Part shown: positions 142-64,000 of the stretch, piece after piece | Position numbering within the stretch: position 1 is the first letter of the stretch | How the letters are laid out: each line of letters begins with the position of its first letter | DNA from: an uncultured Acidobacteriota bacterium | GTDB lineage: Bacteria > Acidobacteriota > Vicinamibacteria > Vicinamibacterales > CAVVIG01 | DNA: 64,000 nucleotides | Direction: 5' to 3' | NCBI GenBank assembly: GCA_963729215.1 | Contig: CAVSND010000011.1 | Span: forward strand, 2,836-66,835 | Program-made: the position numbers and the translations under genes | Notes under the pieces: generated by a model | The model's database searches: none | What the model was told of the DNA's origin: nothing | The model's input: only the letters and a program-made list of their open reading frames with translations

Positions 142-856
142 TCAGCGCTCTGGCAGGTCTTCGGCGAGGGCGACTAGCGCATGAGGCGTCGTCAAAACGA
201 TGCGCTGACGGCCGCTGCGGACGATGCCGCGCTCCTCCCAGGAACTGAGGAGCCGGCTCACGGTGTACAGCGTGGTACCCGTCATCTCGGCGATGTCCTG
301 GCGTGACACGGGGAAGTCGATCTGGACGCCGGCGTCCACGCGCCGTCCTGCTTCCTGCACGAGACGCAGCAATGCGCGCGCGACGCGCCGCTCGACCCGC
401 TCGGTCATGAGTTGGCGGTGTCGGCGCTGCAGGTCGTGCAGTCGGCCGGCGACGAATTGCACGGCGTTGAGGGCCACTCTGGGCTCGATCTCCAGCAACT
501 GTCGCATGGTGCCGGATGTCCACACGAGCGCGACCGCCGGTTCGACCGCTTCCGCGCCAACCGGATACGTGAGATCGCCAAAGGCCCCCGCGCCGCCGAA
601 GGCGTCGCCGGCACAGATGATGCGGAGGACCACCTGGTGCTCTCCGGCGTGAGCTGTGTCAGCTTCACCCGGCCGCTCGTGAGGACGAAAAACGCCTGGG
701 CGTCGTCTCCTTCGTTGAAAAAGAGCTCACCATACCGACCGCTTTCGAGTGCGCCTGATCCCTGATGCGTGCCAGGGCGTCGGCAGCCAATCCTTGAAAC
801 AGGGGCACGTTGTCGAGCTGCCGGGCGATCTCTGCGATGCGTTGGGGAAGGGCCAT
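142..856 (-). CDS. Crp/Fnr-family transcriptional regulator (cNMP-binding domain plus C-terminal HTH); reading frame broken twice (about 730-760 and about 600-640)
   Basis: Three overlapping minus-strand ORFs (665-856, 405-1070, 142-633) together give a contiguous Crp-like protein: 'VPLFQGLAADALARIRDQAHSKA', then 'GELFFNEGDDAQAFFVLTSGRVKLTQL', then 'VVLRIICAGDAFG...RQDIAEMTGTTLYTVSRLLSSWEERGIV'. There is no N-terminal Cys cluster, so it is Dnr/NnrR-like rather than Fnr-like. Confidence 0.6.
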
Positions 857-2073
857 TGGAATCTACGCACCATCCTGCCATAGGGGCCAAATGGACGAGC
901 GTGGCTCGCGATCGGTGTCCGACGAAGTATGTCGTTTGCAACGGTGCCGAGGGTGAACCAGGCACATTCAAGGACCGGTATCTGCTGCGCAAGAACCCGT
1001 ACCAGCTCCTCGAGGGCCTGGCGATTGCCGCCCATGCGATCGGCGCACAGCGAGCGTTTGTCTGTCTCAAGAAGAGCTTCGCGCCCGAGATCGCCGCGGT
1101 TCGACGGGCACTGGCGGAGATGACTGCGGCGAACTCTCTGGGTCCTGTAACCGTCGACGTGGTGCTGGGCCCGGAGGACTACCTGTTCGGCGAGGAAAGA
1201 GCGATGCTCGAGGTGATCGAAGGAGGCGAGGCGATGCCGCGCGAAGCCGATCGCCCGCCGTAGGGTGCACACGGACTCTTCGTCACTGGTCTCGATCGTC
1301 CGAACCCAACGGTCGTCAACAATGTCGAGACGTTGTCGAACGTACCGCACATTCTGGGCCGTGGTGCCGGGTGGTTTCGCTCCATGGGCACGTCGGACAC
1401 ACCCTGAACCATGGTGTTCACGATCTCAGGCGATGTCGAGACACCAGGCGTCTACGAGCTGCCCATGGGCACAACCCTAGACGAGCTCGTCTTGAAGCAC
1501 GGTGGTGGACCTCGGCCAGGTAGGCGCCTGAAGGCCGTGTTCTCCGGTGTCTCGAATGCGGTAATCCTGCCCCCGGCCCTGAACGCCCGGATGGATTTTG
1601 GCTCGATGCAAGCGATCGGCTCGGGCCTCGGGTCCGGAGGCTTCATCGTCTATGACGACACCACCTGTATGGTTCGCTTGGCCCATGCGTTCTCCGAGTT
1701 TCTTCACGCCGAGTCGTGCGGGCAGTGTACCCCGTGCACGTTCGGCACGAATCAAGCAACACGGCACCTACGGAAACTCGTGGAGGGATCAGGCGATTCG
1801 TCCGATCTGGCATTCGTGCTCGAGGGCGCGGCGATGGCTCCGCAAGCCAACCGCTGCTACTTGCCCGTCGAACATTCGCTGGTGGTACCTTCCATCGTTC
1901 GTGCGTTCGGGGAGGAGTTCGAGCAACACTTCAACCGCGGCTGCCGCGGCTGCCGAGACGTCAGGGTGCCGAAGCTCACCGATTTCGATGAGGTGGCGCG
2001 CGCATTTGCGTATGTTCGACGGGCGGGTTCTGCGGGGACGACATCCGAGCATCGCCTCTCGATGTCACGATGA
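780..2073 (+). pseudogene. NuoF/HoxF/FdsB-like NAD(H)-binding FeS flavoprotein remnant: N-terminally truncated, with in-frame TAG (1261-1263) and TGA (1396-1398)
   Basis: Frame-1 translation reads 'KYVVCNGAEGEPGTFKDRYLL...LFGEERAMLEVIEG', then a stop, then '[43 protein letters not shown]', then a stop, then 'TMVFTISGDV...ESCGQCTPCTFGT...'. This matches the NuoF core and its 4Fe-4S motif. The NADH-binding glycine-rich motif upstream is degenerate. The 5' end overlaps the Crp gene on the opposite strand. Confidence 0.55.
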
Positions 2074-2341
2074 CCGTCGGTAACACGAATTGAGCGGTGG
2101 CGCATGCGGACAGTCGACTCGAAGGCGCGGAGGGCTGACGAGGCAAACAAGATGCTCGCCGGACCTCCATCCGTCGGCGTAAACGACAAATATCGTTCAC
2201 CTGTAGACTTGAGCTCGGGTGACGTCGAGCGACGGGAGAACGAAGGCGGTGCGCCGCGGATGCGGTCGAGGGGAGACGCGAGTTCGTCTATCCGTTTCAG
2301 TCGACGGCGGACTCAGCGACTGAGTGCTTATGGAGGTTCCG

Positions 2342-2776
2342 ATGTCTGATGCCCCGCCACAAGAGTCCGCCCATAGACGCCCGCACACAGCGCCGATGGC
2401 CGGTCCGTTTCTCGAATGTGATCTGACGGTAGAGGTCGATCGGCTCCACCGTGAGACGACGTGGGACACGGGTCAGAACGCCAGAACGCTCATAAAGTAC
2501 GACGACTTCCGCGTGGTCCTAACCGTGCTGAAGGCCAATGCTCACGTGCCCGAACACCAGACGACTGGACGAATCTCCGTCCACGTACTGTCAGGACACA
2601 TTCGGCTGAACGCGTCTGGACGCACATTCGATCTTCGATCGGGGAGTTTACTCGCCCTGGATCAGGGAGTCCCTCATGCCGTCGAAGCCCTTCAGGAGAG
2701 CGCGTTCCTACTCACGATCGCCTGGCCTGGCAGGGCGCCGGACTCAATCGGGGAAGCGGAACGACAAGCCGGGTGA
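2342..2776 (+). CDS. cupin-domain protein
   Basis: ATG at 2342 preceded by GGAGG (2333-2337). The translation has a two-His cupin motif ('VPEHQTTGRISVHVLSGHIRL') and lies in a clean single frame. Confidence 0.55.
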   Translation: MSDAPPQESAHRRPHTAPMAGPFLECDLTVEVDRLHRETTWDTGQNARTLIKYDDFRVVLTVLKANAHVPEHQTTGRISVHVLSGHIRLNASGRTFDLRSGSLLALDQGVPHAVEALQESAFLLTIAWPGRAPDSIGEAERQAG

Positions 2777-3329: not shown

Positions 3330-3602
3330 CCAACGTGACGGTGCGCGATATGTTGGAGAGAAGGCCAACACGATGGAGTCTCGTCTCGACTGCAAGCGCT
3401 CCTGGCGATGGAGAAATACATCGCCGCACGTGCCGGACCACATGTAGAAAGAGGCAAGACGCACTTCCCCAGGCAGGTGATCGTCGAAGTGACCTACCTG
3501 GCCGCGACCATCAATGCGTGGAATCGCCCCGCGATCGCGTGGCGGGCACTACCCGGCCATTACCGGGCGACAACGACGATTGCGTAGCCCGGTCGCGCGG
3601 CC

Positions 3603-4904
3603 TTAGAGCCGAGCCGAAGACGGCGTCAGGAACGCGTAGCGCAGGATCCGGATCACATTCACCGTGTCGACGAGGGACGCGGCAAACAAGGACCATGCGG
3701 CGGCGCTGACGAACGGAATGGCATCGAAGGCAAGGCCGCCCGCCAGCGCGGGCACGCCGAACAGCCACAGCACGAACGCGAGTTCCTGCCCTGTGCGCCA
3801 GGGCATCTCGTGCTGCGACGGGACGGGACCCTTGTATCCGGTGTTGGCGTACGCCCAATACCACGCAAAAATCGGCAGCAATCGCCCTTCCATGCCGACG
3901 ACCATCTGCGCCAGGAATCCGACGAGGCCGAAGACACCGTACGCCATCGCGACGCGCAGCGTGTTCGGCGATGGCTCGGCGACTGTGAGCCAGACGCCAA
4001 GCAGGGAGGCGACGGCGAGCCAGACGAACGATGCGCCCGCGTGCAGGACCGCGGGGTCTGGCGTGCGCACCTTGGGCGGACGCGGACGCGGACGGCGCAA
4101 CATCCACACGACCTGCGAGAAAAACGCGGCCAGCGCTCCGACGATGGTGAGCGCAAAGATCCACGCGAACGGACCGCGCCACAACAGTGTGACGAACAGG
4201 CCGGTCACGCCCGTTTGAAGAAGCACCGCGCTGAGCCACAGACGCGGTCCGCTGGGCATGGCTGCGGGCAGAATCATCGGCAGCAGTCGATACGCCACGC
4301 CGACCACCATCATCGTGGCCCAGCCGAGCGCGGCGAGGTGCGCGTGCGCGAAGACGTTGGCGAGCACGAACCCCGGCAGAAAGTGATAGACCTTGTCGAA
4401 TCCGATGAGCACGCCGAGGGTGGCGGCGGCGAGGATGTTGAGAAACGCGAGCATGATGTGCGCGCTGATGGCGCGCGGCAGCGACGCCTGACGCAGGCGC
4501 CGGGCGACGTGAACGCCGACCAGGATAATGCCCGTGCCGACCGTGATGGCCGACCACGCCATGCCGCCGTACTCCTGGAGCCAGAAGTGCGCCACCATGC
4601 CGACGATGCCGATGAGGACGAGGGCAAACGCGGTGTAGTCGAGCCACGTGGCCGGGATCCAGACGCGCAAGGCGACCGGTCCGACGACGTAGAGCGACCC
4701 GAGGATGGAGGCGGTAATCCAGCCGAGCGTCACCAGGTGCACAATCGCCAGCATCCGCGAGTGGTAGAAGAAACCGGACACGCCGCGCGGATCGAGCGCC
4801 ACCGCCAGGCACGCCAGCGCAAACGCGACGTGCGCGACCCCGAAGTAGAGGACCGGCAGCAGGCGCGGCGGCAGTTGGCTGCGGGGTGCCGGTGAGGCGG
4901 TCAC
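3603..4904 (-). CDS. polytopic (about 12 TM) membrane protein with multiple conserved His; possibly NnrS-like heme-copper membrane protein
   Basis: 433-aa ORF in a single frame, highly hydrophobic with repeated His-containing segments ('HLVTLGW', 'HAHLAALGW'). The family assignment is a guess from architecture and context. Confidence 0.5.
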   Translation of the reverse strand: MTASPAPRSQLPPRLLPVLYFGVAHVAFALACLAVALDPRGVSGFFYHSRMLAIVHLVTLGWITASILGSLYVVGPVALRVWIPATWLDYTAFALVLIGIVGMVAHFWLQEYGGMAWSAITVGTGIILVGVHVARRLRQASLPRAISAHIMLAFLNILAAATLGVLIGFDKVYHFLPGFVLANVFAHAHLAALGWATMMVVGVAYRLLPMILPAAMPSGPRLWLSAVLLQTGVTGLFVTLLWRGPFAWIFALTIVGALAAFFSQVVWMLRRPRPRPPKVRTPDPAVLHAGASFVWLAVASLLGVWLTVAEPSPNTLRVAMAYGVFGLVGFLAQMVVGMEGRLLPIFAWYWAYANTGYKGPVPSQHEMPWRTGQELAFVLWLFGVPALAGGLAFDAIPFVSAAAWSLFAASLVDTVNVIRILRYAFLTPSSARL

Positions 4905-4905: not shown

Positions 4906-5584
4906 TCAGCGGGGAGCGTCTCTCAGCGCCCAGAGCGGGTAGTCGATGCCGGCGAGCCGATTGATGACGATCGCCTGCAGCGTCAGGATGGCCACGGCGA
5001 TCTCGATCACGAGCAGGTGGAACGGTCGTGTCACGATCCCGAGCGAGATGATGAGGGTCGTCGCGCCGGCGGGCGGGTGCGCCGCTTTCGCCAGAATCAT
5101 CAACGCGCCCGTCGACGCCAGCGACAGCGCCGCGGCGCCGACGCGCGCGAGCGACACGCCGGTGGCCATCGCCGGCGGCGCGTCCTGCAGGCCGAACAGC
5201 CACAGCGCACCGTATCCGCAGACGATGCCGATCGCGTGCCCGTAGATCGTGTGCCGAGGGCTGGCGGCCGGCGCGCGCGGGCGTGAAGAAGAACAGAAAC
5301 GCGGTCGGGCCCAGCGAGGGAAACACGAACGGCGTGCGGGACACCATCGCGACCGCCGCCAGGAGCGCGATCGTGATGAAGCCGTTCAGAAACATGAACA
5401 GGGCCCAGATGGGGCGCTCCGAATAACGCGTCAGCAGGTGGGTGATCTGGAGTCGTGCGGCAAGGCTCCGCGCCACCTCCGGGGCGTGGACGACGAGCGG
5501 CGGTCGGGGCGGGCGCTCAGCCACGCGGACCCCACTGGCGGAGGCGCGCGTCGAACGACACCACGTACCAGAGCAGTCCGCCAC
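4906..5584 (-). CDS. HPP-family integral membrane protein; 1-nt frameshift about 5262
   Basis: The N-terminal frame gives '...PSLGPTAFLFFFTPARAGRQP'. The C-terminal frame gives 'RHTIYGHAIGIVCGYGALWLFGL...HPPAGATTLIISLGIV' (HPP motif). Removing one T at about 5262 joins 'QP' to 'RHTIYGH'. The start codon is uncertain. Confidence 0.55.
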
Positions 5585-5756
5585 TCAACACGAACAGCAC
5601 GCCCGACGCGATGGCGGTCGGCACGAGGACGACGAACTGTCGCGCAAACAGCGCGTCGAGCGCCGCGGCGACGAGCCACAACTGGATCACCACGAGCAAG
5701 GCGATGAGGACCAGCACGGCGGAGAAGAGAATCGAGCCCTGCTGCCGGGTTTCCAC
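5517..5756 (-). CDS. small two-TM membrane protein, GTG start 2 nt after the Rieske stop
   Basis: 79-aa hydrophobic ORF ('ILFSAVLVLIALLVVIQLWLVAAALDALF...IASGVLFVLSGGLLWYVV') tightly coupled to the upstream gene. Confidence 0.3.
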   Translation of the reverse strand: METRQQGSILFSAVLVLIALLVVIQLWLVAAALDALFARQFVVLVPTAIASGVLFVLSGGLLWYVVSFDARLRQWGPRG

Positions 5757-5757
5757 A

Positions 5758-6246
5758 CTACACCTCGACGCCCGTCGCCACGAGATCGGCGCCGCGCTGC
5801 TCGATCACAATGCGCGGCAGGCGCCGCGTCGGCGGCCCCGCCAGCGGGAGCCCTTCGCGCGCGGAGAACGATCCCTTGTGGCAGGGGCAGGCCAGCACGT
5901 CGTCGCCGGGCCGGTGGACGACCGCGCACGACAGGTGGGTGCAGACCTGCGAGAACGCGTCGATACGTCCCGCCGCGTCACGCACCAGAATGCACGGGTC
6001 ATCGTCGGTCGGGTAGCGGAACAACAACGAGCCTCCTGGCGCAACCTCGTCGGCGGCAGCGATTCGCCTCGCAGGCGGGGCGGGCGCGCGGCCCGTCAGG
6101 CCGATGAACGCGATCAGGACGTTGACGCTCGCCAGCAGGCCCGAACCGAGCGTGAGAAACTTCGCCAGTTCCCGCCGCGTCATGTAGTTGTCTTCGTCCC
6201 ACCGGACGGGGAAGTCCTCGCGCCAGCGCGGACGTTCGTCAGCCAT
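5758..6246 (-). CDS. membrane-anchored Rieske [2Fe-2S] protein with Tat-like RR motif in its anchor
   Basis: 'CTHLSC...CPCHKGSF' Rieske boxes. The N-terminus '[28 protein letters not shown]' resembles an uncleaved twin-arginine signal anchor. Its ATG overlaps the upstream stop as TGATG. Confidence 0.8.
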
Positions 6247-6872
6247 CAATGGGCCTCCAGCAGTGCCGCGACATCGTACGGATCGGCCGGCGGCTGTGAT
6301 CGCCTGAGCGAGCTGAGGGGAATCACCGCCACGTTCACGCGGGTCACCTCGGTGGGCACCAGGACGAAGACCTTGGTGCGCACCTGCTGATCGCCGAACT
6401 GCCAGTCGTTGACCGCCCGTCCCTGTCGCGTCCGCATGATCTCTTCGATCGTCGTGAACGCCAGCGCGCCCGAGGGACACACGGTGGCGCACATCGGACG
6501 CCGGCCCGTGCTCGTGCGGTCGTAGCACATGTCGCACTTCATCATCTGATCGGCGTCGCCGTCGTACTTGGGCACGCCGAACGGGCACGCGAGCACGCAG
6601 TTCGAGCAGCCGATGCAGCGCGGCTTGAGCGAGCTCTGGACGACGCCCTCGGCGGTCTGCTTGATGGCGTCGGCGGGACAGACCTGCGCGCAGATCGGGT
6701 CTTCGCAGTGCATGCACACCTGCGGCGCCGTCTGCACACTGTCGCGCCGCTCGATCGTTTCGAGGTGGATGAGCGATCGCCCGCGGTGCGTGTCGCATTC
6801 CTCGCACGCCTGCACACAGGCCTGGCACCCGATGCAGCGCGAGTAGTCGATGAAGAACGCGAGCTCGCTCAC
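6246..6872 (-). CDS. 4x[4Fe-4S] ferredoxin-type electron-transfer subunit (DmsB/PsrB/FdhB-like)
   Basis: GTG start overlapping the Mo-subunit TGA (GTGA). Four Cys clusters: '[11 protein letters not shown]', '[14 protein letters not shown]', '[12 protein letters not shown]', 'CDMC...CATVCP'. Confidence 0.8.
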
Positions 6873-9093
6873 CGGATGCCTCCGGCCGCCGGCTCGAGCG
6901 CGGCGATGTCGCCGGACGGCTCCGGCGCCTTCGAGACGCGGACGGCGCAGATCTTGAACTCGGGAATCTTGGAGATCGGGATCGATTGCGCGGATCGTGC
7001 AGTTGTTCGCCGATCGGTCGAGCGGCCAGTGATACGGGACGAACACGGTGTCGGGCCGAATGGTTTTCACGACCTGCGCGCGGACGACGATGGCGCCGCG
7101 GCGGCTCTCGACGCGGACGAAATCGCCATCCACGATCCCGAGCGACCCGGCCAGGCGCGGATGGATCTCGCACTGCGGCTGCGGGTACTGGTCGACGAGC
7201 GCGCCGATGCGACGCGTCTGTGTGCCCGACAGATACTGCGACACCACGCGTCCCGTCGTCAGCACGATCGGGTAGTCGGCGTCCGGCTCTTCGGCGGCGG
7301 GCCGCCAGTCGGCCGGCTGAAAATGCGCCTTGCCGTCGGGATGGCCGAACTGCCAGCCTTCGTACAGGCGCGGCGTGCCGGGATGATCGAGCGACGGGCA
7401 CGGCCAGAACACGCCCATCTCGCGATCGATGCGCTCCCACGTGATACCGGCGTAGTCGGCGACGCCGCCTTTCGAGGCGATGCGCAGCTCTTCGAAGATG
7501 TCGCGCGTCGACTCGTACGCGAACTTGTCGCCCGCGCCGAGCCGTTTCGCGAGGTCGCAGATGATCCGCCAGTCCTGCCGCGCGCCCGTCCGGCGGCTGG
7601 ACGACCTGGCGATGATGGATCACGCGCCCCTCGACGTTGGTCGTCGTCCCTTCGTCTTCTTCCATCAGCGAGCCGGGGAGCACGAGGTCGGCGTAGCGCG
7701 CCGTCTCCGACATGAAGAAGTCGATGACCGTGAAGAACTCGAGGCGGCTCAGGGCTTCGCGGATGAAGTCGCCGTCGGGCAGCGACACGGCCGGGTTGAA
7801 GCAGAGCAGCAGCAGGCCCTTGATGCGGCCGTCGTGGATCGCTTCGAGCAGCGGCACGGCCGACAATCCGGTATGCGGGATGGTGGATTCCTCGACGCCC
7901 CACACGCCGGCGATGTATTCCCGGTGCGCCGGGTTCTCGAGGTCGCGCGCACCCGGCAGCTGATCGCATTTCTGTCCCTGTTCGCGCGCGCCCTGGCCGT
8001 TGCCCTGGCCGGTGATCATCGCGTAGCCGCAGCCTTCGCGCCCGATGCGGCCCGTGGCCACCACCAGGTTGATGGCGGCCATGCAGTTCTCGACGCCCTT
8101 CGAGTGGTGCTCGATGCCGCGGGCGTGCAGCAGGAAGCTGGTCTCGGCCGGCCCCCACATTTCGGCCGCGCGCACGATCATCGAGGCGGGCACGCTGGCG
8201 ACCGTCGCCGCGTAGTCCGGGGTGTAGCGCTCGACGATGGCCTCGACGGCGTCCCAGCCGGTGGTATGCGCCGCGATGAACTCGCGGTTGATCCAGCCGC
8301 GCTGCACCATGACGTGGAGCATGCCGTAGAAGACGCCGATGTCGCCGCCCGAGCGCACGGGGATGAAGAGGTCGGCGGTGCGGGCAATCGGCGTCATGCG
8401 CGGATCGAGCACGATGAGCTTCGCGCCGTTCTCCCGCGCCTGCCAGAGATAGTCGGTGGTGATCGGGGCGCACTCGGCGATGTTCGCGCCCGCGACGAGA
8501 ATCACCTTCGCCTTCGGGATGTCGCTCCAGGGGTTGGCGCTGCGATCGATGCCGAGAATCTTCTTCGACGCGGCCGCCGCCGACACCATGCAGAGCCGGC
8601 CGTTGTAGTCGATGTTCGCGGTGCGCACGGCCACCCGCGCGAACTTGCCCATCAGGTACGCCTTCTCGTTGGTCAGCGAGGCGCCGGTCAGCACGGCGAA
8701 GGCGTCCCGTCCGTAGGCGGACTGGATGCGCTGGATCTCGCGCGCGGTACGGTCGAGCGCGGTGTCCCAGTCGATCGGTTGGAAGCCGCGCGCCTCGTCG
8801 CGAACGAGCGGCGTCAGCAGCCGATCCGGATGCTCGTCCTGCATGTAGCGCTTCACGCCCTTGGGGCAGAGCTTTCCCTTGTTGAAGGGGAATTCCTCCC
8901 AGGGCTCGAAGCCGACGATCTTCTCGTCCTTCACCTTGAGCTGGATGCCGCACTGCTGGCCGCAGAAGCAGCAGTGGGTCGGCACGATCCGGTCGGGCTC
9001 GCCGCGCGTGGTCCAGCCGCCGGCCGGTTCCCGGTGGAGATGCGGGCCGAATTGCGCCACGAGATCCGGGATCGACGCCGGCAGTCTGGCCAT
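6869..9093 (-). CDS. molybdopterin (bis-PGD) oxidoreductase catalytic subunit of the Nas/Nap/NarB type; no signal peptide; two 1-nt frameshifts (about 7557 and about 6940)
   Basis: N-terminal 4Fe-4S motif '[12 protein letters not shown]'. Mo-ligand region '[18 protein letters not shown]' matches the Nap/Nas 'RxCMxS' signature. After frame correction the sequence continues '...VVQPPDGR | [31 protein letters not shown]...' and ends '...AIDP | [35 protein letters not shown]'. The ORF-track 1111-aa product is a cross-frame artefact. Confidence 0.75.
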
Positions 9094-10119: not shown

Positions 10120-10187
10120 GAACAGGCCCCATCCGGTGGCGCGAGCGACGTCAGCGCGGGGAGAAGCCGTCACGGACGGAGTATAGG

Positions 10188-53925: not shown

Positions 53926-53932
53926 GCTATTT

Positions 53933-54528: not shown

Positions 54529-54529
54529 C

Positions 54530-55152: not shown

Positions 55153-55711
55153 GCGTGCGCAGCGACGCGCGGACGGCCCGCCGCGCCTCCGACACGCGCC
55201 ATTTGATCGTCCCGGCCGGCGCGTCGAGCATCGCCCCCATCTCGTCGTAGCTGTACTCGCCGCTCTGCGCGAGCAGCAGCGCGTCGCGCAGTTTTGGCGG
55301 CAGCGCCGCGATGGCCTGCCGGATGCCGCTCCGCAGCTGGCCGCCGGCGGCGAGTTCCTCCGGCGTCGCGGGCGGCGGCGGGCTGAAGCCGGACGCGCTC
55401 ACGGCGCGCGTGTCCGCGTCCCCAACCGGCACGATCCGCTGCCACCAGCGCGCGGCCGCGCGCCTGCGATTGATAGCCTGGTTCCACGCGATCGTCAGCA
55501 GCCATGTCTTGAAGCTCGCCGCGCCCCGGAAGCTCTTGAGCCGCCGGTACGCCAGCAGGAACGCCTCCTGCGCCACATCGTCGGCATCGGCTGTCGAGCC
55601 GGTGGCCGCGAGGGCGGCCCTGTAAACGGCGGCCTGATGCCTGACGACCAGCTCGCCGAATGCGGCGGTGTCGCCTTCGCGGGCTCGGGCGACCAGGTCG
55701 TCGTCGGTCAC
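55136..55711 (-). CDS. ECF (RpoE-like) sigma-70 family sigma factor, intact
   Basis: Region 2 'AFLLAYRRLKSFRGAASFKTWLLTIAWNQAINRRR'; region 4 'LPPKLRDALLLAQSGEYSYDEMGAMLDAPAGTIKWRVSEAR'. Confidence 0.85.
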   Translation of the reverse strand: MTDDDLVARAREGDTAAFGELVVRHQAAVYRAALAATGSTADADDVAQEAFLLAYRRLKSFRGAASFKTWLLTIAWNQAINRRRAAARWWQRIVPVGDADTRAVSASGFSPPPPATPEELAAGGQLRSGIRQAIAALPPKLRDALLLAQSGEYSYDEMGAMLDAPAGTIKWRVSEARRAVRASLRTHGHDE

Positions 55712-55739
55712 TCAGTCAGTAGACACCCGGGGCCGGGGA

Positions 55740-55812
55740 ATGGTTGGGGGGTAGAGGTTGGAGGTTGGAGGTTGGAGGTTAGAGGTTAGAGGTTAGAGGT
55801 TGGGGGTTGGAG
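55740..55812. repeat. tandem heptamer repeat (GAGGTTR)n, about 10 units, upstream of the ECF sigma gene
   Basis: 'ggttggggggtagaggttggaggttggaggttggaggttagaggttagaggttagaggttgggggttggagg'. Confidence 0.55.
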
Positions 55813-55814
55813 GC

Positions 55815-55912
55815 ACCCGGTCATCTGGTCATCTGGTCATCTGGTCAATTTGAAATTGCCAAATCGACAAACGATGACCAGACGACCGGATGACCAAACG
55901 ACCGGATTCGCG
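55815..55912. repeat. octamer-built palindromic element, copy 4 (more degenerate arms)
   Basis: 'ccggtcatctggtcatctggtcatctggtcaa tttgaaattgccaaatcgac aaacgatgaccagacgaccggatgaccaaacgaccgg'. Immediately after the cytochrome c peroxidase stop. Confidence 0.6.
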
Positions 55913-55918
55913 AGATTC

Positions 55919-57070
55919 CTAGTCGAGGAGTTTCATGAACGCGACCATGTCGGCCTCGTCCTGCGGCGTGAGCTGGATGAACCCCTGCGCGGGACCCGCC
56001 GGACCGTCTGGATCGGTGACGAAGGCGAAGAACCTGGTGTAGTGCGCGGCGACTTCCTCGAGCGTCTTCGCGGAGTTGTCGTGGAAGTAGGGCCCCGTCT
56101 TCCGGATGCCGCGCAGCGGCGAGATCTTGAACGCGTCCAGGTCGTCGATGTTGCCCGTGATGAGCGCCCGTCCCGGATCGGTGCTCGACACCGGCACGTC
56201 GCCTGCAGGCGTGCTGAAGATGAAATCCTGCACGGGCTGATTCGCCGTGTTGAACAACCCCACCAGGATGTTGAAGAACCGCGTCGCCGTCGGGATGGGC
56301 ACCTGGATGAACAGCGGCGCGAACTCGTTGGTCTGGTTCATCAGCGTCCCGCTGTGGCAGTGCGCGCACAGGCCCGGCTTGAAGCCGGCGGACGGATCCG
56401 GCGGCACGTCTTCGAAGAAGCGCCGCCCGCGGCGCTCGGACGCGGTGTTGCCGCGCGGCAGGTGCGGAGCCGGACCGCCGAGCGCGCGGATCTTCAGCTC
56501 GAACGAGCTGAAAAACGAGAGGTCGGTCTGCTGGAAAAATCTGAGCGATTCGAGGTCGCCCAGCTCCGGGAAGGCCGGGGCCTGCGCGTGATCGAGAATC
56601 GCGCCCTGGGCCTGCAGTTCGAGCGACGGCTGGCGGCCGTCGAGCATCAGGGTCGGGTCGAGGGCCGGCGTGTTGAGCGTCGACGGAATGCCGCGCCGGA
56701 CGGTCACGAACCGATCCTCGGAATGCGCCAGGCGCACGTTCGGCGGAAGTGCAATCTTCATCAGGATGGTGGCATCGGTCAGCATCCGCGTGACGCCGTG
56801 GCCCAGGCCATCGTCGCTGCCGTCGTGCAGGAACAGCGGATCGTGGGGATTGGCCAGGAAGCGCGCCTTCGCGTCGGCGGGGGAGACGGTCCCCGTCTTG
56901 CGGCTGTGACAGGTGAGGCACGTCCGGCCGTTGCCGCCGAACGTCTCACGCTCGAAAAGCTGCCGGCCGTCGCGATCGCTCTCGCCTCGCACCGGGACAG
57001 ACAGCGAGCCGACCATGAGGCTGGCAAAAACTAACACAGTGACTGCACCGAACAGACGTTGCACTCTCAT
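55919..57070 (-). CDS. di-heme cytochrome c peroxidase (CCP/MauG family)
   Basis: Signal peptide; two CxxCH sites ('CLTCHS', 'CAHCHS'); 'GPYFHDNSAKTLEEV'. Confidence 0.85.
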   Translation of the reverse strand: MRVQRLFGAVTVLVFASLMVGSLSVPVRGESDRDGRQLFERETFGGNGRTCLTCHSRKTGTVSPADAKARFLANPHDPLFLHDGSDDGLGHGVTRMLTDATILMKIALPPNVRLAHSEDRFVTVRRGIPSTLNTPALDPTLMLDGRQPSLELQAQGAILDHAQAPAFPELGDLESLRFFQQTDLSFFSSFELKIRALGGPAPHLPRGNTASERRGRRFFEDVPPDPSAGFKPGLCAHCHSGTLMNQTNEFAPLFIQVPIPTATRFFNILVGLFNTANQPVQDFIFSTPAGDVPVSSTDPGRALITGNIDDLDAFKISPLRGIRKTGPYFHDNSAKTLEEVAAHYTRFFAFVTDPDGPAGPAQGFIQLTPQDEADMVAFMKLLD

Positions 57071-57522
57071 TCATCCTCCTGACGGGACTCAGCGATTACA
57101 CCCGTACACGCGCGTAATGCCGGGATAACGGCTCAGATTTGTGGCTGGAGTTTACGCGTTGGGCAGGGCAGAAGGTTGGCCATCGCGACCGGGCTGGCGA
57201 GTCCTACCTCTTCCGCAGTCAGAGCGGTGAACGCTCCGATCAAGCTCGATCCGGCCTCGCCTCGCGGCTATTTCCTCGATCGCTACGCCTTGATCGAAGT
57301 GCAAGCGCGCGCCGCGGCGAACGCGGGCACGCCCTACGATCCCGCCAGGCCGCCGAAGGAGTTCGGCCTTTGGTTCGGCGGTGATCGCGTATCCGACGAG
57401 CTGCGGCGATCGAACGATCCCCGGCGACAAACGTGGAGTTGATCTGCTGCGCAAGGATCCATTGCGCGTGAGGCGCCCGGCGGCATCTGCAGGGCGATGA
57501 TCTCGCAACGGCGTTCCCTGGC

Positions 57523-57897
57523 GTGCCGGCACCCGATGGAAGCATCGGAATCCGATTCCGCAACGCCCAGCCCACGCAGGCAAGAATCGTCTACGCCCAG
57601 GGGTGCAACGGTTCGCCGGCTGAAATCACGCTGCCGTTTCGTGTGGAACAGGCGCGGCTCCTCGAGCTCGTGCCGGGCGTGATACCCGCCGGGGTCGCCG
57701 ACGCCGAACCGGTGGTGTACATCCAGGTCCTCATCGATCCCGAGGGCCACATCGCGCGTCCGCAGTACCTCGGCGGACCGCGCTCACTCTACCCGGCCGC
57801 CGTCGACGCGCTCGCGAAGTGGCGCGTGCAGCCGATCCGCGTGAACGGGTCCGGCGTGGTGACCCCGAACGTCGTGCAGGTCCCGTTCCGTCCGTAA
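57523..57897 (+). CDS. TonB C-terminal-domain protein (possibly a truncated fragment)
   Basis: 'PQYLGGPRSLYPAAVDALAKWRVQPIRVNGSGVVTPNVVQVPF' matches the TonB_C consensus (YP..A....W.F.P...G.pv). No N-terminal TM or Pro-rich region. Confidence 0.35.
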   Translation: MPAPDGSIGIRFRNAQPTQARIVYAQGCNGSPAEITLPFRVEQARLLELVPGVIPAGVADAEPVVYIQVLIDPEGHIARPQYLGGPRSLYPAAVDALAKWRVQPIRVNGSGVVTPNVVQVPFRP

Positions 57898-57937
57898 CGT
57901 CGGGCGCCAGGAGGAGGAGCGTCGAGCCTCTTGGCCG

Positions 57938-58342
57938 TCAGTCTCGAACGGCTTTGATCAGCGCCTCCATGTGCGCGAGATATTTCTCCAGCGCGCGTTT
58001 GCCCGCGGCCGTGAGGCGGTATTCGGTGCGCGGCATCCGCCCCTCGAACGACTTGTCCACGGAGATGTACTCCGCGTCCTCGAGCTTCCGCGCGTGCACG
58101 CTCAGGTTGCCGTCCGTCGTCTCGAGCAGGGCCTTGAGCTCGTTGAACGTGAGGCGATCGTTGACCGCCAGCGCGCTGATGATGCCGAGCCGGAGGCGCT
58201 CGTGGATCAGCCGATCGAGGCCCTGAACCCGCGGCTCGTGGCTCGCGGCTCGTGACCCGTGGCTCGTGGCTCGTGACTCGTGGCTCGTGGTTCGCGGCTC
58301 GCGTTTGCCGGCTGCCGACCGCTGACTGCTCGCTTTACCCAC
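57938..58342 (-). CDS. winged-helix transcriptional regulator (PadR-like) with N-terminal tandem-repeat tail
   Basis: 'IHERLRLGIISALAVNDRLTFNELKALLETTDGNLSVHARKLEDAEYISVDKSFEGRMPRTEYRLTAAGKRALEKYL' wHTH. The N-terminus 'TTSHESRATSHGSRAASHEPR' is encoded by a 9-nt tandem repeat. Confidence 0.55.
   Translation of the reverse strand: MGKASSQRSAAGKREPRTTSHESRATSHGSRAASHEPRVQGLDRLIHERLRLGIISALAVNDRLTFNELKALLETTDGNLSVHARKLEDAEYISVDKSFEGRMPRTEYRLTAAGKRALEKYLAHMEALIKAVRD
58228..58312. repeat. tandem 9-nt repeat (GGCTCGTGR)n, about 8 units, inside the 5' coding region of the regulator gene
   Basis: 'ggctcgtggctcgcggctcgtgacccgtggctcgtggctcgtgactcgtggctcgtggttcgcggctcgcg'. Confidence 0.5.
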
Positions 58343-58928
58343 CGTATCTCCTCGCGATGATCACGCCAAACACAATGTGAAGGCCGCCGAACCCGACGGC
58401 CATGAACGCGTTGCCCCACGCGGGCGGCGACGCGAACGCCGCGGCGCCGAGCAGCATGAACGCGAGCCCCATGACGGGCACGACGCGCACCGACAGCGCG
58501 CCGCCGGCGGCGACCGCCGCGCCGTACAGCAGCAGCCAGCAGCCGGGGAGCCGCGGCGTGAGGCCGCTTTCGAGCGCCGCCGCCGTCAGCACGGCGCCGG
58601 CCGCGAGCGGCGGCAGATAGGCGAGCGCGAAGCGCCGGAACGCCTGCGAGGCGAGCGGCATGTCCGACGCGCGCGCTTTCCGCGCCATGGTCCCGACGCC
58701 AATCCCCGTCGCCACGGCCGCCGCCCCGAGCCAGACCGGGAGCCAGCGCGCGCCGCCGAGCGGACCCGCGACGGCCGCGGCCGCCAGGCCGACGATGCCG
58801 ATGCCGACGCCGCCCCAGCCCGGCACCGCCGTAAACGGCGCCGCCCGCTCCATCGTCCGGCGGATGAAGCGGAGGTTGTCCATCGCGTGCGCGTGGAGCG
58901 CGGGGACCGGCTCCTGGGCCTCAGGCAT
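58335..58928 (-). CDS. hypothetical integral membrane protein (about 5 TM) co-transcribed with the PadR-like regulator
   Basis: Hydrophobic Ala/Gly-rich ORF overlapping the regulator start by 8 nt. Confidence 0.4.
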   Translation of the reverse strand: MPEAQEPVPALHAHAMDNLRFIRRTMERAAPFTAVPGWGGVGIGIVGLAAAAVAGPLGGARWLPVWLGAAAVATGIGVGTMARKARASDMPLASQAFRRFALAYLPPLAAGAVLTAAALESGLTPRLPGCWLLLYGAAVAAGGALSVRVVPVMGLAFMLLGAAAFASPPAWGNAFMAVGFGGLHIVFGVIIARRYGG

Positions 58929-59019
58929 TAAGGACTTTATAGCACAGAGCGTTGCGGCCGTCGAAACGTCCACGGTTTACTGCGCCACGGACGCGGTGCA
59001 CCGTACGGCGCGACAACTG

Positions 59020-59589
59020 TCACAAGTGATCGGGCACGGCGCGATTGGACTGCGCGCGCCAGCGCTCGCCGTACACAGAGGAGTACTCGACCTCGATGAC
59101 GCCGTGTTTCAGTTCGGCTGGCGTGAAGCGCGCGTACCACCCGCTCGGGACGTCGGCAAAATCGAACAGCTTGAGCATCACGGGGAGCATCGTCTGCTGG
59201 CCGTTCGCGCCGGGGGTGAACTGCAGCATCTGCACGGTCGTGCCGGCCGGAATGAGACGTCCCTTCTGCACCTTGTCCACACCCGCGCCGCCTTTTCTGT
59301 TCTCCTCGCTCAGCCCCATGTAGAAATCGTACGGGTCGGCCGCGATGTCGCGGCCCTCGTAACGAATATGGACGCCGTCTATAATCGCGGGGCCGATGCC
59401 GGAGTTGGCGAGCAGAATCTCGACGCCTTGCTGGTCGTTCGAGAGCAACGAAAAGTACAGGTACGGCAGCCTGGACGCGCGCTCCGCGTCGCGCATGAGC
59501 AGCGCCTGATAGGACAGGGCGGCGAGTGTCCCGACGCTGACGACCATCGCACTGATCGCGATCCACTTGTCGGCATCGAATTTGGCCAT
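59020..59589 (-). CDS. hypothetical membrane-anchored protein
   Basis: 'MAKFDADKWIAISAMVVSVGTLAALSY' N-terminal TM; no recognisable domain. Confidence 0.35.
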   Translation of the reverse strand: MAKFDADKWIAISAMVVSVGTLAALSYQALLMRDAERASRLPYLYFSLLSNDQQGVEILLANSGIGPAIIDGVHIRYEGRDIAADPYDFYMGLSEENRKGGAGVDKVQKGRLIPAGTTVQMLQFTPGANGQQTMLPVMLKLFDFADVPSGWYARFTPAELKHGVIEVEYSSVYGERWRAQSNRAVPDHL

Positions 59590-59665
59590 GGGCGCGCATT
59601 TTACACCTCGGTGGACGGGATAGACCGGTCCGCCTCCCACTGGTTAGACGGCAGAAGAGGCAGTT

Positions 59666-60184
59666 GTGCCGGCATCCGAAGCAGTCAGCCTGCAGCGAGC
59701 AACGCCGGACTTGGCTCCGGTGCTGCGCCATCTCCTGGAGCTGTACGTTCACGATCTGAGCGAGATCTTTCCAATCGAGCTCGGGTCTGATGGTCTCTTC
59801 GGGTACGACAAGCTGCCCCTTTATTGGGCAGAGCCGGACCTGCACCATGCGTTTCTGATTAAAGAAGGAAGGCATGTCGCCGGCTTTGCCCTCGCAACGC
59901 GGGGGTCGCCGGCGAGCGAGAATCCGGAAGACCTCGACGTTGCGGAGTTCTTCGTCCTTCGCGGGCATCGGCGCTCGGGCGTCGGCCGTCTGGCGGCCGC
60001 CGCGCTGTGGGATGCCCTACCGGGAAACTGGATCGTGCGCGTCTCGGAAGCGAACCTGGCCGGGCTCCCGTTCTGGAGCGACGTCGTTCGGTCGTACACG
60101 TCTGGCGATTTCGTAGAGAGCGCGCGGCCGGAGGGCTGGCGCGTCTTCAGGTTTGCCAGTACAGCCTGGCGCACCCCTTATTGA
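59666..60184 (+). CDS. GNAT-family N-acetyltransferase
   Basis: 'FFVLRGHRRSGVGRLAAAALWD' acetyl-CoA binding motif (Q/RxxGxG/A). Confidence 0.55.
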   Translation: MPASEAVSLQRATPDLAPVLRHLLELYVHDLSEIFPIELGSDGLFGYDKLPLYWAEPDLHHAFLIKEGRHVAGFALATRGSPASENPEDLDVAEFFVLRGHRRSGVGRLAAAALWDALPGNWIVRVSEANLAGLPFWSDVVRSYTSGDFVESARPEGWRVFRFASTAWRTPY

Positions 60185-60200
60185 CACAGGGTAATCGACG

Positions 60201-60660
60201 CTACAGCCATCGCCGAGCCCGCGCCTGGTAGGCCACGTACGTCTCTCCAAACAAGGACGCCAGGACGCGCTCCTCTGGCCCGATTTGGAATCGGTTGATG
60301 TACAGGACGTACGCGGGAAGAAACACGAAGGCGAGCCCGCTCTGCAGGAAGACAGCCCAACCGAGCAGCATGATGAGGCCGCCCAGGTACATCGGGTTGC
60401 GAGACACCCCGTAGACACCCCGCGTGACCAACGTCGACGCGTGAGGCTTCAACGGGTTAATCGTCGTCCTGGCCTTCCGGAAGGTCAGGACACCCGATGT
60501 GCCTGTCACAAATCCCGCGAGGATAACAACGGCGGCGAGCCAGTTGTGCCCTGGCAGGTCAAAGTGAAGTGATGGTACGGCCCGTGACAGCAGCCACATG
60601 AACACCGCCATGACCAATACAACCGCTGGCGGTGGGATTTTCGAATCAAGTGCAGGCATG
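60201..60660 (-). CDS. isoprenylcysteine carboxyl methyltransferase (ICMT/PEMT) family membrane protein
   Basis: 'TRGVYGVSRNPMYLGGLIMLLGWAVF' with the RNPMY motif. Confidence 0.65.
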
Positions 60661-60661
60661 C

Positions 60662-62104
60662 TCACTTCCCGCCCGCGTACATCTTGGTGAGCCGGTACAG
60701 AAACTCGCGGCCTTCCATCAACGACCGCACGCGGATGCATTCGTTGAGCCCGTGGGCATTCGTCTTCGCGCGATCAAGAAACATCCCAGAGACCCCGTAC
60801 GTCGGCACGCCTGCGGCGGTGAGGAAACGCCCGTCGTTCGTGCCGGATGTTGCGCGGGCACGACCGGGACGCCGGGGAACAGCTCGCTGGTCAGCTTTTC
60901 GATCGGTCCCATGATGTCGGCCGTCAGCGTCGGCGGCGGTCCGGCTTTCTCCGGCTCGGCCTGGAACGCCACTTTCACACCCGCATCACTGATCGTCCTG
61001 ATGAGCGTCTGACGAATCTCCTCGGGCGCATGGCCGGGGAAGATGCGGCAGTTGACGTTGGCCGTGACGTGTTGCGGCAGGGCGTTCTGGGCATGGCCGC
61101 CGTTGATCATCGTGGCGACGCATGTCGTGTGCAGCATCCCGTTGAGATTCGGGTCCTTCTTGAGCCGCGTCGACGGCGGCCGCATCGCCGCTGGCGGCGA
61201 CGGCCTTCATGTCGGCGCCCTGGGCTCCGCCGACGATCTCGCCGAACTTGGCGAAGTAGCCGCGAGTCGCGTCGTTGAACTCGACGGGGAACTCGAACGC
61301 CTGGATTTTCGCGAGCGCCTGGGCCATCTGGTAGATGGCATTGTCCGGCGTCGGTCGTGACGAGTGGCCGCCCTGGTTCACCGTTTCCAGCGTAAAGTCC
61401 TGATAGAGCTTCTCACCGGCCTGAATGCCGTTGTACTGGTACGCGCCGGTCTTGCCGTCCAGCCGGCCGCCGCCGCCCTCGTTGAGCGCGAAGGCCGCGT
61501 CCATCAGCGCTCGGTGATGTTCGAGGAGGTAGCGGACGCCGTTGAACGTTCGGGGGTCTCCTCGCCGCATGTGAGCGCGAGCTTGATGCCGCGCGTCGGT
61601 TTGTAGCCGTCCTGTTTGAAGCGGACCATCGAATCCGCGAAGATCGACGCCATGGACTTGTCATCGGCCGCACCGCGCGCGTAAAAGTAGCCGCCCTCTT
61701 CGACCAGCTTGAAGGATCGCGGCTCCAGTCCTCGCGCTTGGCTTCGACCACGTCGAGATGAGCCAGCAGCATCAAGGGCTTCAGACTCGCATCCGTCCCC
61801 GGCAGCAGAGCGATCAGGTTGCCATTCTTCGGCTGATTGGGCGGCGCGATGAGATGGAGGTCGTTCTCGGAATAGCCGGCCTGCACGAGGTGCGCCTTCA
61901 TGGCGTTTGCCGCCGCGGTGCAGGAGCCGACGGAGAGCGTCGTGTTGATCTCGATCAGTTCCTTGTAGAGCGCCCGGAACGCCTGCTCGCCGGCGCGAGC
62001 CGGGTTGGCACTGCTGCCTGGCCGGCACGCAGGTCTGCGCGTTGCCCCGCGCAGACGGCGGCGATCACAAGCAGGCTGATCGCGGGCGAATGGCTTTTGC
62101 GCAT
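60662..62104 (-). pseudogene. M20-family metallopeptidase (dipeptidase/ArgE-DapE-like) with signal peptide; at least 4 frameshifts
   Basis: The pieces 'MRKSHSPAISLLVIAAVCAG', 'FRALYKELIEINTT', 'LLAHLDVVEAKREDWSRDP', 'FKLVEEGGYFYARGAADDKSMAS', 'LALTCGEETPERS', 'GKTGAYQYNGIQAGEKLYQDFTLETVNQGGHSSRP' and '...TKMYAGGK*' are distributed over four overlapping minus-strand ORFs in all three frames. Confidence 0.55.
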
Positions 62105-62355
62105 TGGTCACGGGTCCTCTCGGTTTCGAGCCGGAGAATAGTCGGCCGCCTGGGATGAGCGTGCGAACGTCGTGCAACGCCGGGAGGGTGCCGGGGAACG
62201 TGTCGAAGAGTGACTTGAGTATACGCGCGGAAGCGAGTGTGCACGGGATTAGTCTCTGGTGACGTCGATGCGGCGAGTTTGGCACCAGTGAGGACTAGGG
62301 CCGCGCAAGTGCGAGCGTGGGAGATCGTTGTAAGTTTGCCTGGGTGCTTCAGGAA

Positions 62356-63009
62356 ATGAACAGTCACCTCACGCGAGCGGCGCTCGCCGCGGCTGTGCTT
62401 TTCAGCGCGTGCCGGGGACCCGAGGCACCGGCTTCGCCGCCGACGGTTCCGTCGGCGCCGGTCCAGCCGGCGTTCGTCGCGGTCTACGGTCGCGTCCTCG
62501 ACTTCAAGACGAACGCGGGCGTCGCGAACGAAACGATCAAGTTTACACCCCGCCGTTCGATGCCACCGGAGGCACGGTGACGACCGACGCCGCCGGCAAC
62601 TACTCGCTGTTGCTCCCGCCCGGCAACTACAACCCGAGAATCGGCGGCGATACACCACACTACAATCGCGGAACGATCCGGCCGGTGGGGGCGGCGTACC
62701 TCGCCGACTACTTCATCAACGGTGACAACTGCGTGATGTTTTACGGCACCGTCCGGAGTGCCACACGACTGTCCTTATCGCGGGCGCGACCGTCTCGTTC
62801 CTGGGGAGGACGCAGATATCCGGGAGCGACGGATCCTTTCGACTCGATCTCGGCTGCCCGACGGGGACCTTGCCTTTCGGAACCGGCACGACGTTCATGA
62901 CCGTCAGCAGCCCCGGCTACGTCACGCAATCCGCATACGGTAATCGGGCGGAGTTCGTCCCCGCCGATGGCTTACAGCGGGTTGACGTCAACCTTCAACC
63001 GGTGCCCTG
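62356..63009 (+). pseudogene. lipoprotein with carboxypeptidase-regulatory-like domain; several frameshifts
   Basis: 'MNSHLTRAALAAAVLFSAC' lipobox; 'TDAAGNYSLLLPPGNY' typical of CarbopepD_reg. The continuation requires at least 3 frame changes to reach '...GYVTQSAYGNRAEFVPADGLQRVDVNLQPVP*'. Confidence 0.4.
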
Positions 63010-63105
63010 ACGTTTCCAGCGACAATCGGGTTGCGGGAACGGTGACCGTCTGAGGATCGCCGGCACGATCTGATCGCGACGCAAACGAACCCGGTCATCC
63101 CGATC

Positions 63106-64000
63106 AGTGTTCAACCTCGTTGAAAGGTGTCGGAACCCATGGCCTGAACAACGATTTCCGCCATGCGAATCAACGTATCCGCCTGGCGCGTCTGTCATGG
63201 CTTTGCCGCGCTTCGCGTTGACCTCGTGGATGAACGCCCCGATCTCATTCACGGCGGCATTACTTCTGCTGCGCGTCCAGCTCGCGAGGGCTGCGTCGAG
63301 CTTCACCGTCAGCGCGTGCAGTCAGTCCGTTCGGCAGCCCATACGCGGTGACCTGAGCGATCAGCTGGTCAAGCGCCGACGGGACCGACACGGGCAGGAC
63401 CCACATCGTGGCGTGCCCGGCGCTCGACCCGACCACCTGACCGTGGTTGTTGACATCTCCGGCGGCGCCGGAGCCGCCGACCGCGAGCTCCGGGAGACCC
63501 ACCATTCCGCCAGCCGCCGTCCATGAGAAGGCGTGGGTCACCGCGTCTCCGGCGGTGGTGCTCCACCCGACGACCTGGCCGGTGTTGTTCACCGCGGAGG
63601 CCGTGCTTTGCGTTCCTCCGAGCGTGCCGAGGTCGACCATCCCACGGCCCGCCGTCCATGAAAACGCGTGGAGTTCGACGTTCCCGGTGTAGCTGTGACC
63701 GACCACCTGGCCGGTCTCGTTCACGGCTGTGGGGGAGGCGCTGCTTCCGAGGTTGCCAGCGTCCACCGTCCCGCCGCTCGGGGTCCACGAGAACACCCTG
63801 GATTAGCTCACACCGTTGAGAAAGTGTCGCCGACCACGTGGCGGCTATCGCTTACGCCTCGGGCGAAGCTGAGGCCGTCGAGGCGCGTGCCGAGATTGAC
63901 CATCCCGCCGGAAGACCTCCATGAGAACGCGTGGGTTATCCTGTATTCTTCGGGTCCGACTTGGCGTAGCCGACCACTTGATCGCTCGCGCTCGCGTCGG
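63106..64000 (-). CDS. HAF-repeat extracellular protein (partial, runs off the window end); frameshifted
   Basis: Repeated 'HAFSWTAxGGMVDLGTLGGxxSxAxAVNxxGQVVGxS' units, which are the HAF-family repeat. Confidence 0.5.

Follow-up and report, generated by a model that had tools for sequence, protein, structure and literature searches.

Single-base frame breaks in about one third of the genes of a Vicinamibacterales metagenome contig are probably uncorrected long-read consensus errors

When about one third of the genes on a metagenomic contig are broken by single-base insertions or deletions, are these genes broken in the organism or only in its assembly? The question is raised by a 64-kb stretch, here referred to as the window, of a 123,603-bp contig from a metagenome-assembled genome (MAG) of the Vicinamibacterales (Acidobacteriota). 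The breaks in this window exist, they are private to the assembly, random and independent of sequence context, they are not accompanied by relaxed selection, and they are absent from near-identical short-read DNA. We suggest that the bulk of them are uncorrected long-read consensus errors, a reading to which we assign a probability of about 85% and in which the two deletions in the gene for a Crp/Fnr-family regulator are assigned to neither side. In other words, the breaks are confirmed as an observation and are mostly artefact, with two or three genuinely decayed genes alongside, and the organism almost certainly has the ~20 affected genes intact.

Central breaks are private, random and independent of sequence context

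The window has a G+C content of 66% and a very strong GC bias at third codon positions (GC3), with GC3 being lower at both window ends. Breaks were detected by reading same-strand frame switches in a GC3 frame plot and in a codon-usage Viterbi segmentation. The pieces of broken open reading frames were joined and scanned against Pfam hidden Markov models (HMMs), checking the continuity of matches across the junctions, and the breaks were placed by DNA alignments and by tblastn with intact proteins of relatives, using 20 or more related contigs that are 88-99.8% identical to the window and jointly span nearly all of it. The short-read relatives (JGI, Logan, SPAdes 'NODE' and MEGAHIT 'k141' contigs) are L079-L088, L092-L096, L098, L100 and L101. 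Two 'contig_'-named relatives, L097 (ENA ERZ25039520 contig_102821) and L099 (ENA ERZ1700618), are taken as long-read assemblies solely from their contig names, which is Flye-style in the case of L097. L001-L004 are loci from genome representatives whose synteny with the window is limited to 41.8-57 kb, L003 and L004 being Nanopore bins of a sister species, and L089 has one gene in common with the window. All relatives other than L098 (99.8% identical) and L079 (98.5%) represent different strains. Sequencing runs behind ERZ23831753, ERZ23872266 and ERZ23832146 give contigs with 97-98.5% identity to the window.

Between 4 and 57 kb, 43 genes with 49.6 kb of coding DNA contain 17 breaks, i.e. 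~1 per 2.9 kb, and these comprise 14 single-base insertions, two single-base deletions and one insertion of 7 nucleotides (nt). At every site at which the GC3 phase is readable on both sides (~19 sites over the whole window; binomial, 2e-6), it is the window that is broken and the relative that is continuous. An initial annotation of the window, made from the sequence alone, had proposed a comparison with orthologous loci in relatives, and in this comparison every tested gene is intact in short-read contigs from other samples that are 92-99.8% identical to the window; for instance, the flotillin gene is intact in the SPAdes contig L079, which is 98.5% identical over 4.9 kb. Between pairs of short-read contigs, no one-sided frame break was found in ~58 kb with ~2,400 substitutions, and the natural coding indels seen in short-read and strain comparisons are multiples of 3. 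Among ~15 billion proteins, the frameshifted versions of flotillin (187 amino acids (aa)), the VWA-domain protein (353 aa) and a secreted protein (332 aa) are found on the window's contig only; several intact neighbour proteins recur exactly on 2-4 contigs.

Private breaks are not restricted to this contig. L097 has six private frame breaks in 8 kb and seven private indels in its PEMT and M20 peptidase genes at places where the window is intact or different: the PEMT gene, intact in the window, has three insertions in L097 and is cut to 83 aa there, and the M20 gene of L097 is split into 271 and 155 aa. L099 has a private break at the equivalent of window position 4007, where the window and L089 agree, which shifts the frame of the C-terminal 134 aa of a 436-aa protein, and the Nanopore bin L004 has a private break at window-equivalent 56717.

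Third codon positions account for a share of 0.78 of the mismatches upstream of the breaks (n=242), of 0.73 downstream of them (n=162) and of 0.73 in intact genes (n=591). Because this share is equal upstream and downstream, the 'dead' halves are under unchanged purifying selection. With regard to placement, 28 genes are intact compared to 29.6 ± 1.4 expected from gene lengths under a Poisson model, the positions of breaks within genes are uniform (Kolmogorov-Smirnov p=0.41), and the spacing of breaks has a coefficient of variation of 0.77. Broken and intact genes lie next to each other in the same operons: in the molybdopterin (Mo) oxidoreductase operon, the genes for the NarI-like subunit, the Mo subunit and the HPP protein are broken and those for the 4Fe-4S, Rieske and DUF6755 proteins are intact, and in the RND operon the transporter paralogues RND1 and RND3 are broken and RND2 and the membrane fusion protein are intact, as the initial annotation had observed for the latter operon. 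Neither insertion sequence (IS) elements nor large deletions were found in the central 50 kb.

Most real 1-nt indels of spontaneous origin are found in mononucleotide runs. The breaks are not associated with homopolymers, the mean run length at the breaks being 1.67 compared to a background of 1.87, and a homopolymer origin was rejected on this comparison. Similarly, no 4-mer is enriched at the 27 break sites (best 4-mer p=0.008 before correction for 256 tests). Several insertions adjoin TCGA or GATC, but a methylation motif was rejected as their cause since the excess of TCGA is not significant (5 compared to 2.9 expected, p=0.16).

The breaks are present at, or within ~40 nt of, the positions that the initial annotation had given, and those it listed were confirmed in 20 of 21 genes by the GC3 and Viterbi analyses, by Pfam matches over the junctions and by alignments to intact orthologues. 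A single Pfam HMM match crosses the repaired junction in the HPP, Mo subunit, histidine kinase 1 and phytase-like genes. The broken genes between 4 and 57 kb are:

4909 to 5533, minus strand: HPP-family membrane protein; +1 at 5282 (one Pfam TM_HPP stretch over the junction; L099 alignment)
6872 to 9093, minus strand: molybdopterin oxidoreductase catalytic (Mo) subunit; +1 at 7589 and +1 at 6978 (Pfam Molybdopterin match over the junction)
9096 to 10173, minus strand: NarI-like membrane subunit; +7, an imperfect 7-nt tandem duplication at 9612-9618 (L099 alignment)
13354 to 14314, plus strand: SDR/NAD-dependent epimerase; +1 (G) at 13966 (alignments to L080, L082, L084 and L085, where it has 319 aa)
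14997 to 17001, minus strand: hybrid histidine kinase 1; +1 (G) at 16376 (PAS_9 HMM over the junction; intact in four relatives)
21461 to 22895, plus strand: phytase-like esterase; +1 at 22356 (one Pfam Phytase-like stretch; L084 orthologue intact, 473 aa)
26371 to 26945, minus strand: ECF sigma factor; -1 at 26538 (intact 193-aa gene in L080, L081 and L083)
26960 to 27944, minus strand: secreted protein of 328 aa; +1 (G) at 27032, which alters the final 24 codons (alignments to relatives, tblastn)
30845 to 32651, plus strand: flotillin/Band 7 protein; +1 (C) at 31256 (intact in the SPAdes contig L079 and in L100, 602 aa)
34912 to 35917, minus strand: VWA-domain protein; +1 (G) at 35190 (L100 orthologue intact, 337 aa)
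41862 to 45111, minus strand: RND transporter paralogue 1; +1 at 43042-43048 (tblastn and MAFFT against L001-L004)
48349 to 51457, minus strand: RND transporter paralogue 3; +1 at 49885-49890 (tblastn and MAFFT against relatives)
52952 to 53816, plus strand: Kdo-hydroxylase-like protein; +1 (G) at 53384 (alignment to relatives)
53930 to 54483, minus strand: Pro-rich 190-aa protein; +1 at 54054 and +1 at 54402 (alignment to relatives, tblastn)
54590 to 55153, minus strand: anti-sigma factor; -1 at 54949 (L092, L093 and L097 agree against the window)

By tblastn, the 740-aa Mo-subunit orthologue of L099 matches three window frames with 97-99.5% identity. The initial annotation had described the breaks as 1-nt frameshifts or in-frame stops, which holds for most of them but not for the NarI-like gene with its 7-nt insertion; its repaired 357-aa product has thousands of homologues of 340-360 aa to which it aligns in full length (100%), and no Pfam match. 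The operon at 4909-10173 on the minus strand, in the order NarI-like (357 aa), molybdopterin oxidoreductase (740 aa), 4Fe-4S, Rieske, DUF6755 and HPP, is conserved and is also found in L099.

One listed break did not hold up, namely that of DUF488 in the C-run at 2784-2787. The DUF488 gene is intact with 183 aa, and the frame switch at 2776/2778 marks where it borders on a separate Cupin_2 gene of 143-144 aa; the two genes are called in this way in L099 and L101. An apparent break in the region 36038-37951 likewise resolved into two divergent intact genes with intergenic indels, and further Viterbi frame switches at 4922, 5533, 5760, 6249, 9111, 13342, 26370, 55153 and 57917 are gene boundaries. 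As also described initially, the RND3 break adjoins the edge of a tract shared with RND2: 49900-50300 in RND3 and 46660-47060 in RND2 are 94-100% identical over ~400 nt, whereas the identity is 81-95% in relatives. This near-identity suggests either recent gene conversion or cross-mapping of the paralogues during polishing.

The two ends of the window

The damaged genes at the ends of the window are:

155 to 871, minus strand: Crp/Fnr-family regulator; -1 at 640 and -1 at 729 (L099 DNA alignment; by tblastn the 238-aa Crp of L099 matches three frames)
878 to 2073, plus strand: NuoF-like remnant; TAG at 1261-1263 with local +1/+2, TGA at 1396-1398 and an imperfect 7-nt duplication at 2068 (L101 DNA alignment)
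3372 to 3600, plus strand: CMD-family remnant; deletions of 25 nt and 223 nt that include the catalytic core, TAC>TAG and a 1-nt deletion (compared with the intact 154-aa CMD of L101 and L099)
57233 to 57896, plus strand: 3' remnant of a 396-aa gene; 5' part and PIN/PhdYeFM genes absent (alignment, tblastn; same structure in L097)
60665 to 62104, minus strand: M20 peptidase; breaks at 62012, 61713, 61549, 61172 and 60846 (four-way alignment; tblastn with the 481-aa L092 protein)
62356 to 63010, plus strand: CarboxypepD_reg-like 'lipoprotein'; -1 at 62544 and -1 at 62765 (alignment, tblastn)
63114 to 64000, minus strand: 472-aa 'HAF' protein, extending past the window end; breaks at 63186, 63319, 63825 and 63940 (alignment, tblastn)

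The CMD remnant and the truncated 396-aa gene were absent from the initial list of damaged genes. That list did contain the two stops of the NuoF-like gene, TAG 1261 and TGA 1396, which are borne out and correspond to TAC>TAG and GGA>TGA; an intact 459-aa homologue has 95% identity. In addition, the first ~61 codons are missing, so that the gene starts at ~codon 62 and adjoins the upstream region of the Crp gene. Of the remaining substitutions in this gene, 70% are at third positions, and the locus is missing altogether in L099. Because truncations, large deletions and nonsense transversions are unlike consensus errors, it is probable that both the NuoF-like gene and the CMD gene are real pseudogenes of recent origin, situated in what would be a strain-variable accessory region. 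The truncation of the 396-aa gene is probably also a genuine deletion, since the same structure is present in L097. A mixed lesion spectrum is seen in these three remnants only; the lesions in the other ~19 genes are ±1 indels together with one +7.

At the other end, between 60 and 64 kb, 11 breaks fall in 3 kb of coding DNA, or ~1 per 300 bp, which is ten times the central density (Poisson p=1e-8), and because of this high density the initial annotation suspected real decay here. It had counted at least four sites in the M20 peptidase gene, where we find five, and at least three in the lipoprotein gene, where we find two. Among window-private substitutions in this region the third-position share is 0.38 compared to 0.67-0.85 elsewhere (in M20 alone 45%, in a small sample of n=31), and this loss of codon-position bias fits either neutral decay or errors. 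The indels are all of 1 nt except for a +3/-4 cluster at 62006/62014 (net -1), with no range of deletion sizes, and there is no GC to AT excess among the substitutions at 60-64 kb (per site, ~1.1% GC to AT compared to ~1.5% AT to GC). Mutations in double-stranded DNA are expected to be near strand-symmetric. The transitions in a control region at 12-32 kb are indeed strand-symmetric, whereas the private transitions at 60-64 kb are not, with 15 C>T compared to 3 G>A and 13 A>G compared to 2 T>C (combined 28 compared to 5, p=7e-5). Nanopore miscalls are chiefly purine-purine or pyrimidine-pyrimidine and strand-dependent (PMC11610573, PMC11610603). In M20, the L097-private substitutions keep their third-position bias (0.67) and, therefore, the gene is under selection in this sister lineage. 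Moreover, both L097 and a Logan short-read contig match the sequence just upstream, at 58.9-60.2 kb, with 99.8-100% identity; the change to the 60-64 kb region is, therefore, an abrupt drop in quality, as where read support thins. Decay of the 3' end is thus not favored by the 1-nt indels, the strand-asymmetric transitions, the lack of a GC to AT bias and the private indels of L097 in the same genes, and we consider it probable, with less confidence than for the breaks as a whole, that the lesions at 60-64 kb are errors in near-raw Nanopore sequence.

Explanations for the breaks

We suggest that only Nanopore reads, at modest coverage, went into the assembly of the contig and that it was never corrected with accurate reads. 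Over most of the window, single-base insertions and deletions would then remain in the consensus at random, and at 60-64 kb, where the sequence might be supported by a single read or a few reads, all in one orientation, there would be extra substitution errors. Each stray base would shift the reading frame and cause gene callers to split or truncate ~20 otherwise normal genes. The origin of the closest genomes is consistent with this proposal. By the intact RND transporter, the nearest loci in species-representative genomes, at 81-92% protein identity, are in 'MFD...bin' MAGs and short-read soil MAGs, and the closest genomes are Nanopore bins of the Microflora Danica catalogue (Acidobacteriota/Vicinamibacterales MAGs). 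This catalogue was built from Nanopore data only, using Flye --meta --nano-hq and one Medaka round without short-read polishing (PMC12313526). The same group reported that Nanopore bins below ~40x need Illumina polishing and that residual indels otherwise lead to frameshifted gene calls (Sereika et al. 2022, PMC9262707). We infer that the window derives from a Nanopore-only data set like this catalogue, and that its coverage was low. Breaks that are private, random and free of context, without relaxed selection, are what consensus errors predict, while a burst of mutations with these properties would be an improbable coincidence. The preference of the initial annotation for uncorrected indel errors is thus sustained on these grounds, together with the intact genes in short-read assemblies.

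Genuine and very recent pseudogenisation, with ~30 inactivating mutations in ~20 genes under relaxed selection or in a mutator background, has in its favor that all breaks are lineage-specific relative to the relatives, that the lesions in the NuoF-like, CMD and 396-aa genes look biological, that the insertion at 61172 is common to L097, and that the 3'-end lesions are clustered and accompanied by private substitutions without codon bias. We nevertheless regard it as quite unlikely. The sequence downstream of the breaks is not under relaxed selection, the lesions are almost all ±1 nt, outside homopolymers and Poisson-random both across and within genes, and the central 50 kb lack IS elements and large deletions. 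Broken and intact genes alternate within the Mo-oxidoreductase operon and the three-paralogue RND operon, and population mates that are 98.5-99.8% identical carry intact genes. Frameshifted products are found in the window's assembly alone, other long-read-style contigs carry different private breaks, and the substitution spectrum at the 3' end is strand-asymmetric and not AT-biased. Under decay, the same lesions would be expected in independent assemblies, but the only shared ones are the 396-aa truncation and the 61172 insertion, both in L097. Real breaks would mean that genes of a free-living soil bacterium were inactivated in a burst without precedent, and the evidence is against this. It is very improbable that a free-living soil population of Vicinamibacterales very recently gained dozens of real non-homopolymer single-base insertions in conserved operons, for example by an insertion-prone mutational process or by a sudden relaxation of selection before other signs of decay appeared. 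The chance that programmed ribosomal frameshifting, transcriptional slippage or stop read-through keeps the genes functional is close to nil: nothing beyond the good conservation of both gene halves speaks for it, while the 27 sites share no slippery motif and no enriched motif, +1, -1 and +7 shifts all occur, orthologues are in one frame in all relatives, and the shift sites are conserved in no other assembly. A strain-chimeric consensus was also rejected, the natural between-strain coding indels here being multiples of 3.

A combination of the two origins, in which the central breaks are errors and both ends (0.6-3.6 and 57-64 kb) are strain-variable accessory regions with decaying genes, deserves more weight than these but remains a tentative alternative that we consider rather doubtful. 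In its favor, the lesions of the NuoF-like and CMD genes look real, as does the 396-aa truncation that is shared with L097, the end regions are structurally polymorphic between strains, the break density at 60-64 kb is tenfold that of the center, and GC3 is lower at both ends. What counts against it lies at 60-64 kb: apart from the 62006/62014 cluster the indels are of 1 nt without a deletion bias in size, the private transitions are split 28 to 5 by strand without a GC to AT bias, the L097 substitutions in M20 are biased to third positions, and private indels of L097 are found in the genes of this region as well.

Several observations weigh against consensus errors as the origin of the bulk of the breaks. 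The ratio of insertions to deletions is 14:2 in the center and 3:9 at the ends (Fisher p=0.0015), which points to two different consensus regimes, and the insertion excess in the center is unlike the classic Nanopore signature of deletions in homopolymers. The lack of such deletions among the breaks speaks against an R9-type signature but not against random errors at low coverage. Two of the breaks, in the NarI-like and NuoF-like genes, are 7-nt imperfect tandem duplications, which we can only speculate to be artefacts of read stitching, and the nonsense transversions and large deletions of the NuoF-like and CMD genes are not readily explained by consensus errors. The insertion at 61172, common to L097 and absent from short-read relatives, stems either from a systematic error or from a real change in an ancestor. 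The sister-species Nanopore bins L003 and L004 are almost break-free and, therefore, the error rate would have to be specific to the window's MAG, i.e. to its coverage. Of the sister bins, MFD02242.bin.3.262 is free of breaks over 12 kb. Finally, because the relatives are mostly different strains, real mutations specific to the lineage could in principle account for the indels, and platform and depth are themselves inferences.

Frameshifted gene calls in assemblies made from long reads only are a well-known artefact, and the window resembles Nanopore-only genomes and MAGs in that isolated 1-nt indels split conserved genes (the IDEEL problem; PMC9262707). It also resembles them in that the indels are missing from short-read assemblies of the same DNA; the severity of the artefact depends on coverage. 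However, it departs from the textbook artefact in lacking a homopolymer bias and in the predominance of insertions in its center. The mainly transitional and strand-asymmetric private substitutions at 60-64 kb are similar to strand-specific Nanopore base-call errors (PMC11610573, PMC11610603); unlike methylation- or signal-related errors, the window sites have no recurrent motif, and the asymmetry could reflect reads in a single orientation.

Pseudogene-rich genomes are found in reductive evolution, e.g. in Mycobacterium leprae and in recent host-restricted pathogens. The window is similar to such genomes in its high share of frameshifted or stopped genes and in the decay-type truncations and deletions of the NuoF-like, CMD and 396-aa genes. 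However, most of its broken genes carry just one ±1 lesion, and their signature of purifying selection is unchanged; there is neither an IS expansion nor a spectrum of deletion sizes, and the lineage is a free-living one from soil, with intact genes in its near-identical relatives.

For users of the sequence, the contig comes with a quality warning in that it is unsuited to claims about pseudogenes or gene content. Mis-calling of about one third of the genes would distort pseudogene counts, pangenomes, metabolic reconstructions, protein databases and sequence-trained models, and frameshifted fragments are already in public protein collections; mis-called proteins from assemblies such as L097 and L099 are in public databases as well. 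The analysis also illustrates that errors and real breaks can be separated without reads, by polarising the breaks against short-read relatives and by examining their sequence context, their fit to Poisson placement, the codon-position bias downstream and the strand symmetry of private substitutions.

Strain variation and intergenic repeats

Structural variation at the strain level is seen at 878-882, 57231-57233 and 59020-60184. Depending on the relative, the NuoF-like gene is present, absent or truncated. The PIN/PhdYeFM genes and three other genes of L092 are missing from both the window and L097, and in place of a 463-aa S9-like gene of L092 the window has two small genes. Over 53727-64000, identity to L097 is a mosaic, with 100% at 59.0-60.0 kb, 98-99% at 54-56 kb and 74-77% at 56-57 kb, the low-identity segment being a cytochrome-c-peroxidase-like gene; this pattern would indicate recombination between diverged alleles in the population. 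Among the relatives, L080 has two genes (254 and 132 aa) at 3363-4555 where L081 has one 397-aa gene at 6538-7731. Both are JGI short-read contigs, and this difference in gene calls, at a locus absent from the window, may be a rare natural frame difference or one introduced by assembly.

Two types of repeats lie between genes. Palindromic elements of ~100 nt are present at 33356-33461, 48239-48349, 53820-53928 and 55814-55904, and also in the relative L003; one arm consists of 4-5 tandem copies of ATCTGGTC and the other of four copies of the reverse complement GACCAGAT, so that, as judged from their sequence, these elements can form hairpins. Intergenic heptamer arrays are found at 55742-55818 and 58227-58303, with the repeats (GGTTGGA/GGTTAGA)n and (GGCTCGT)n, respectively.

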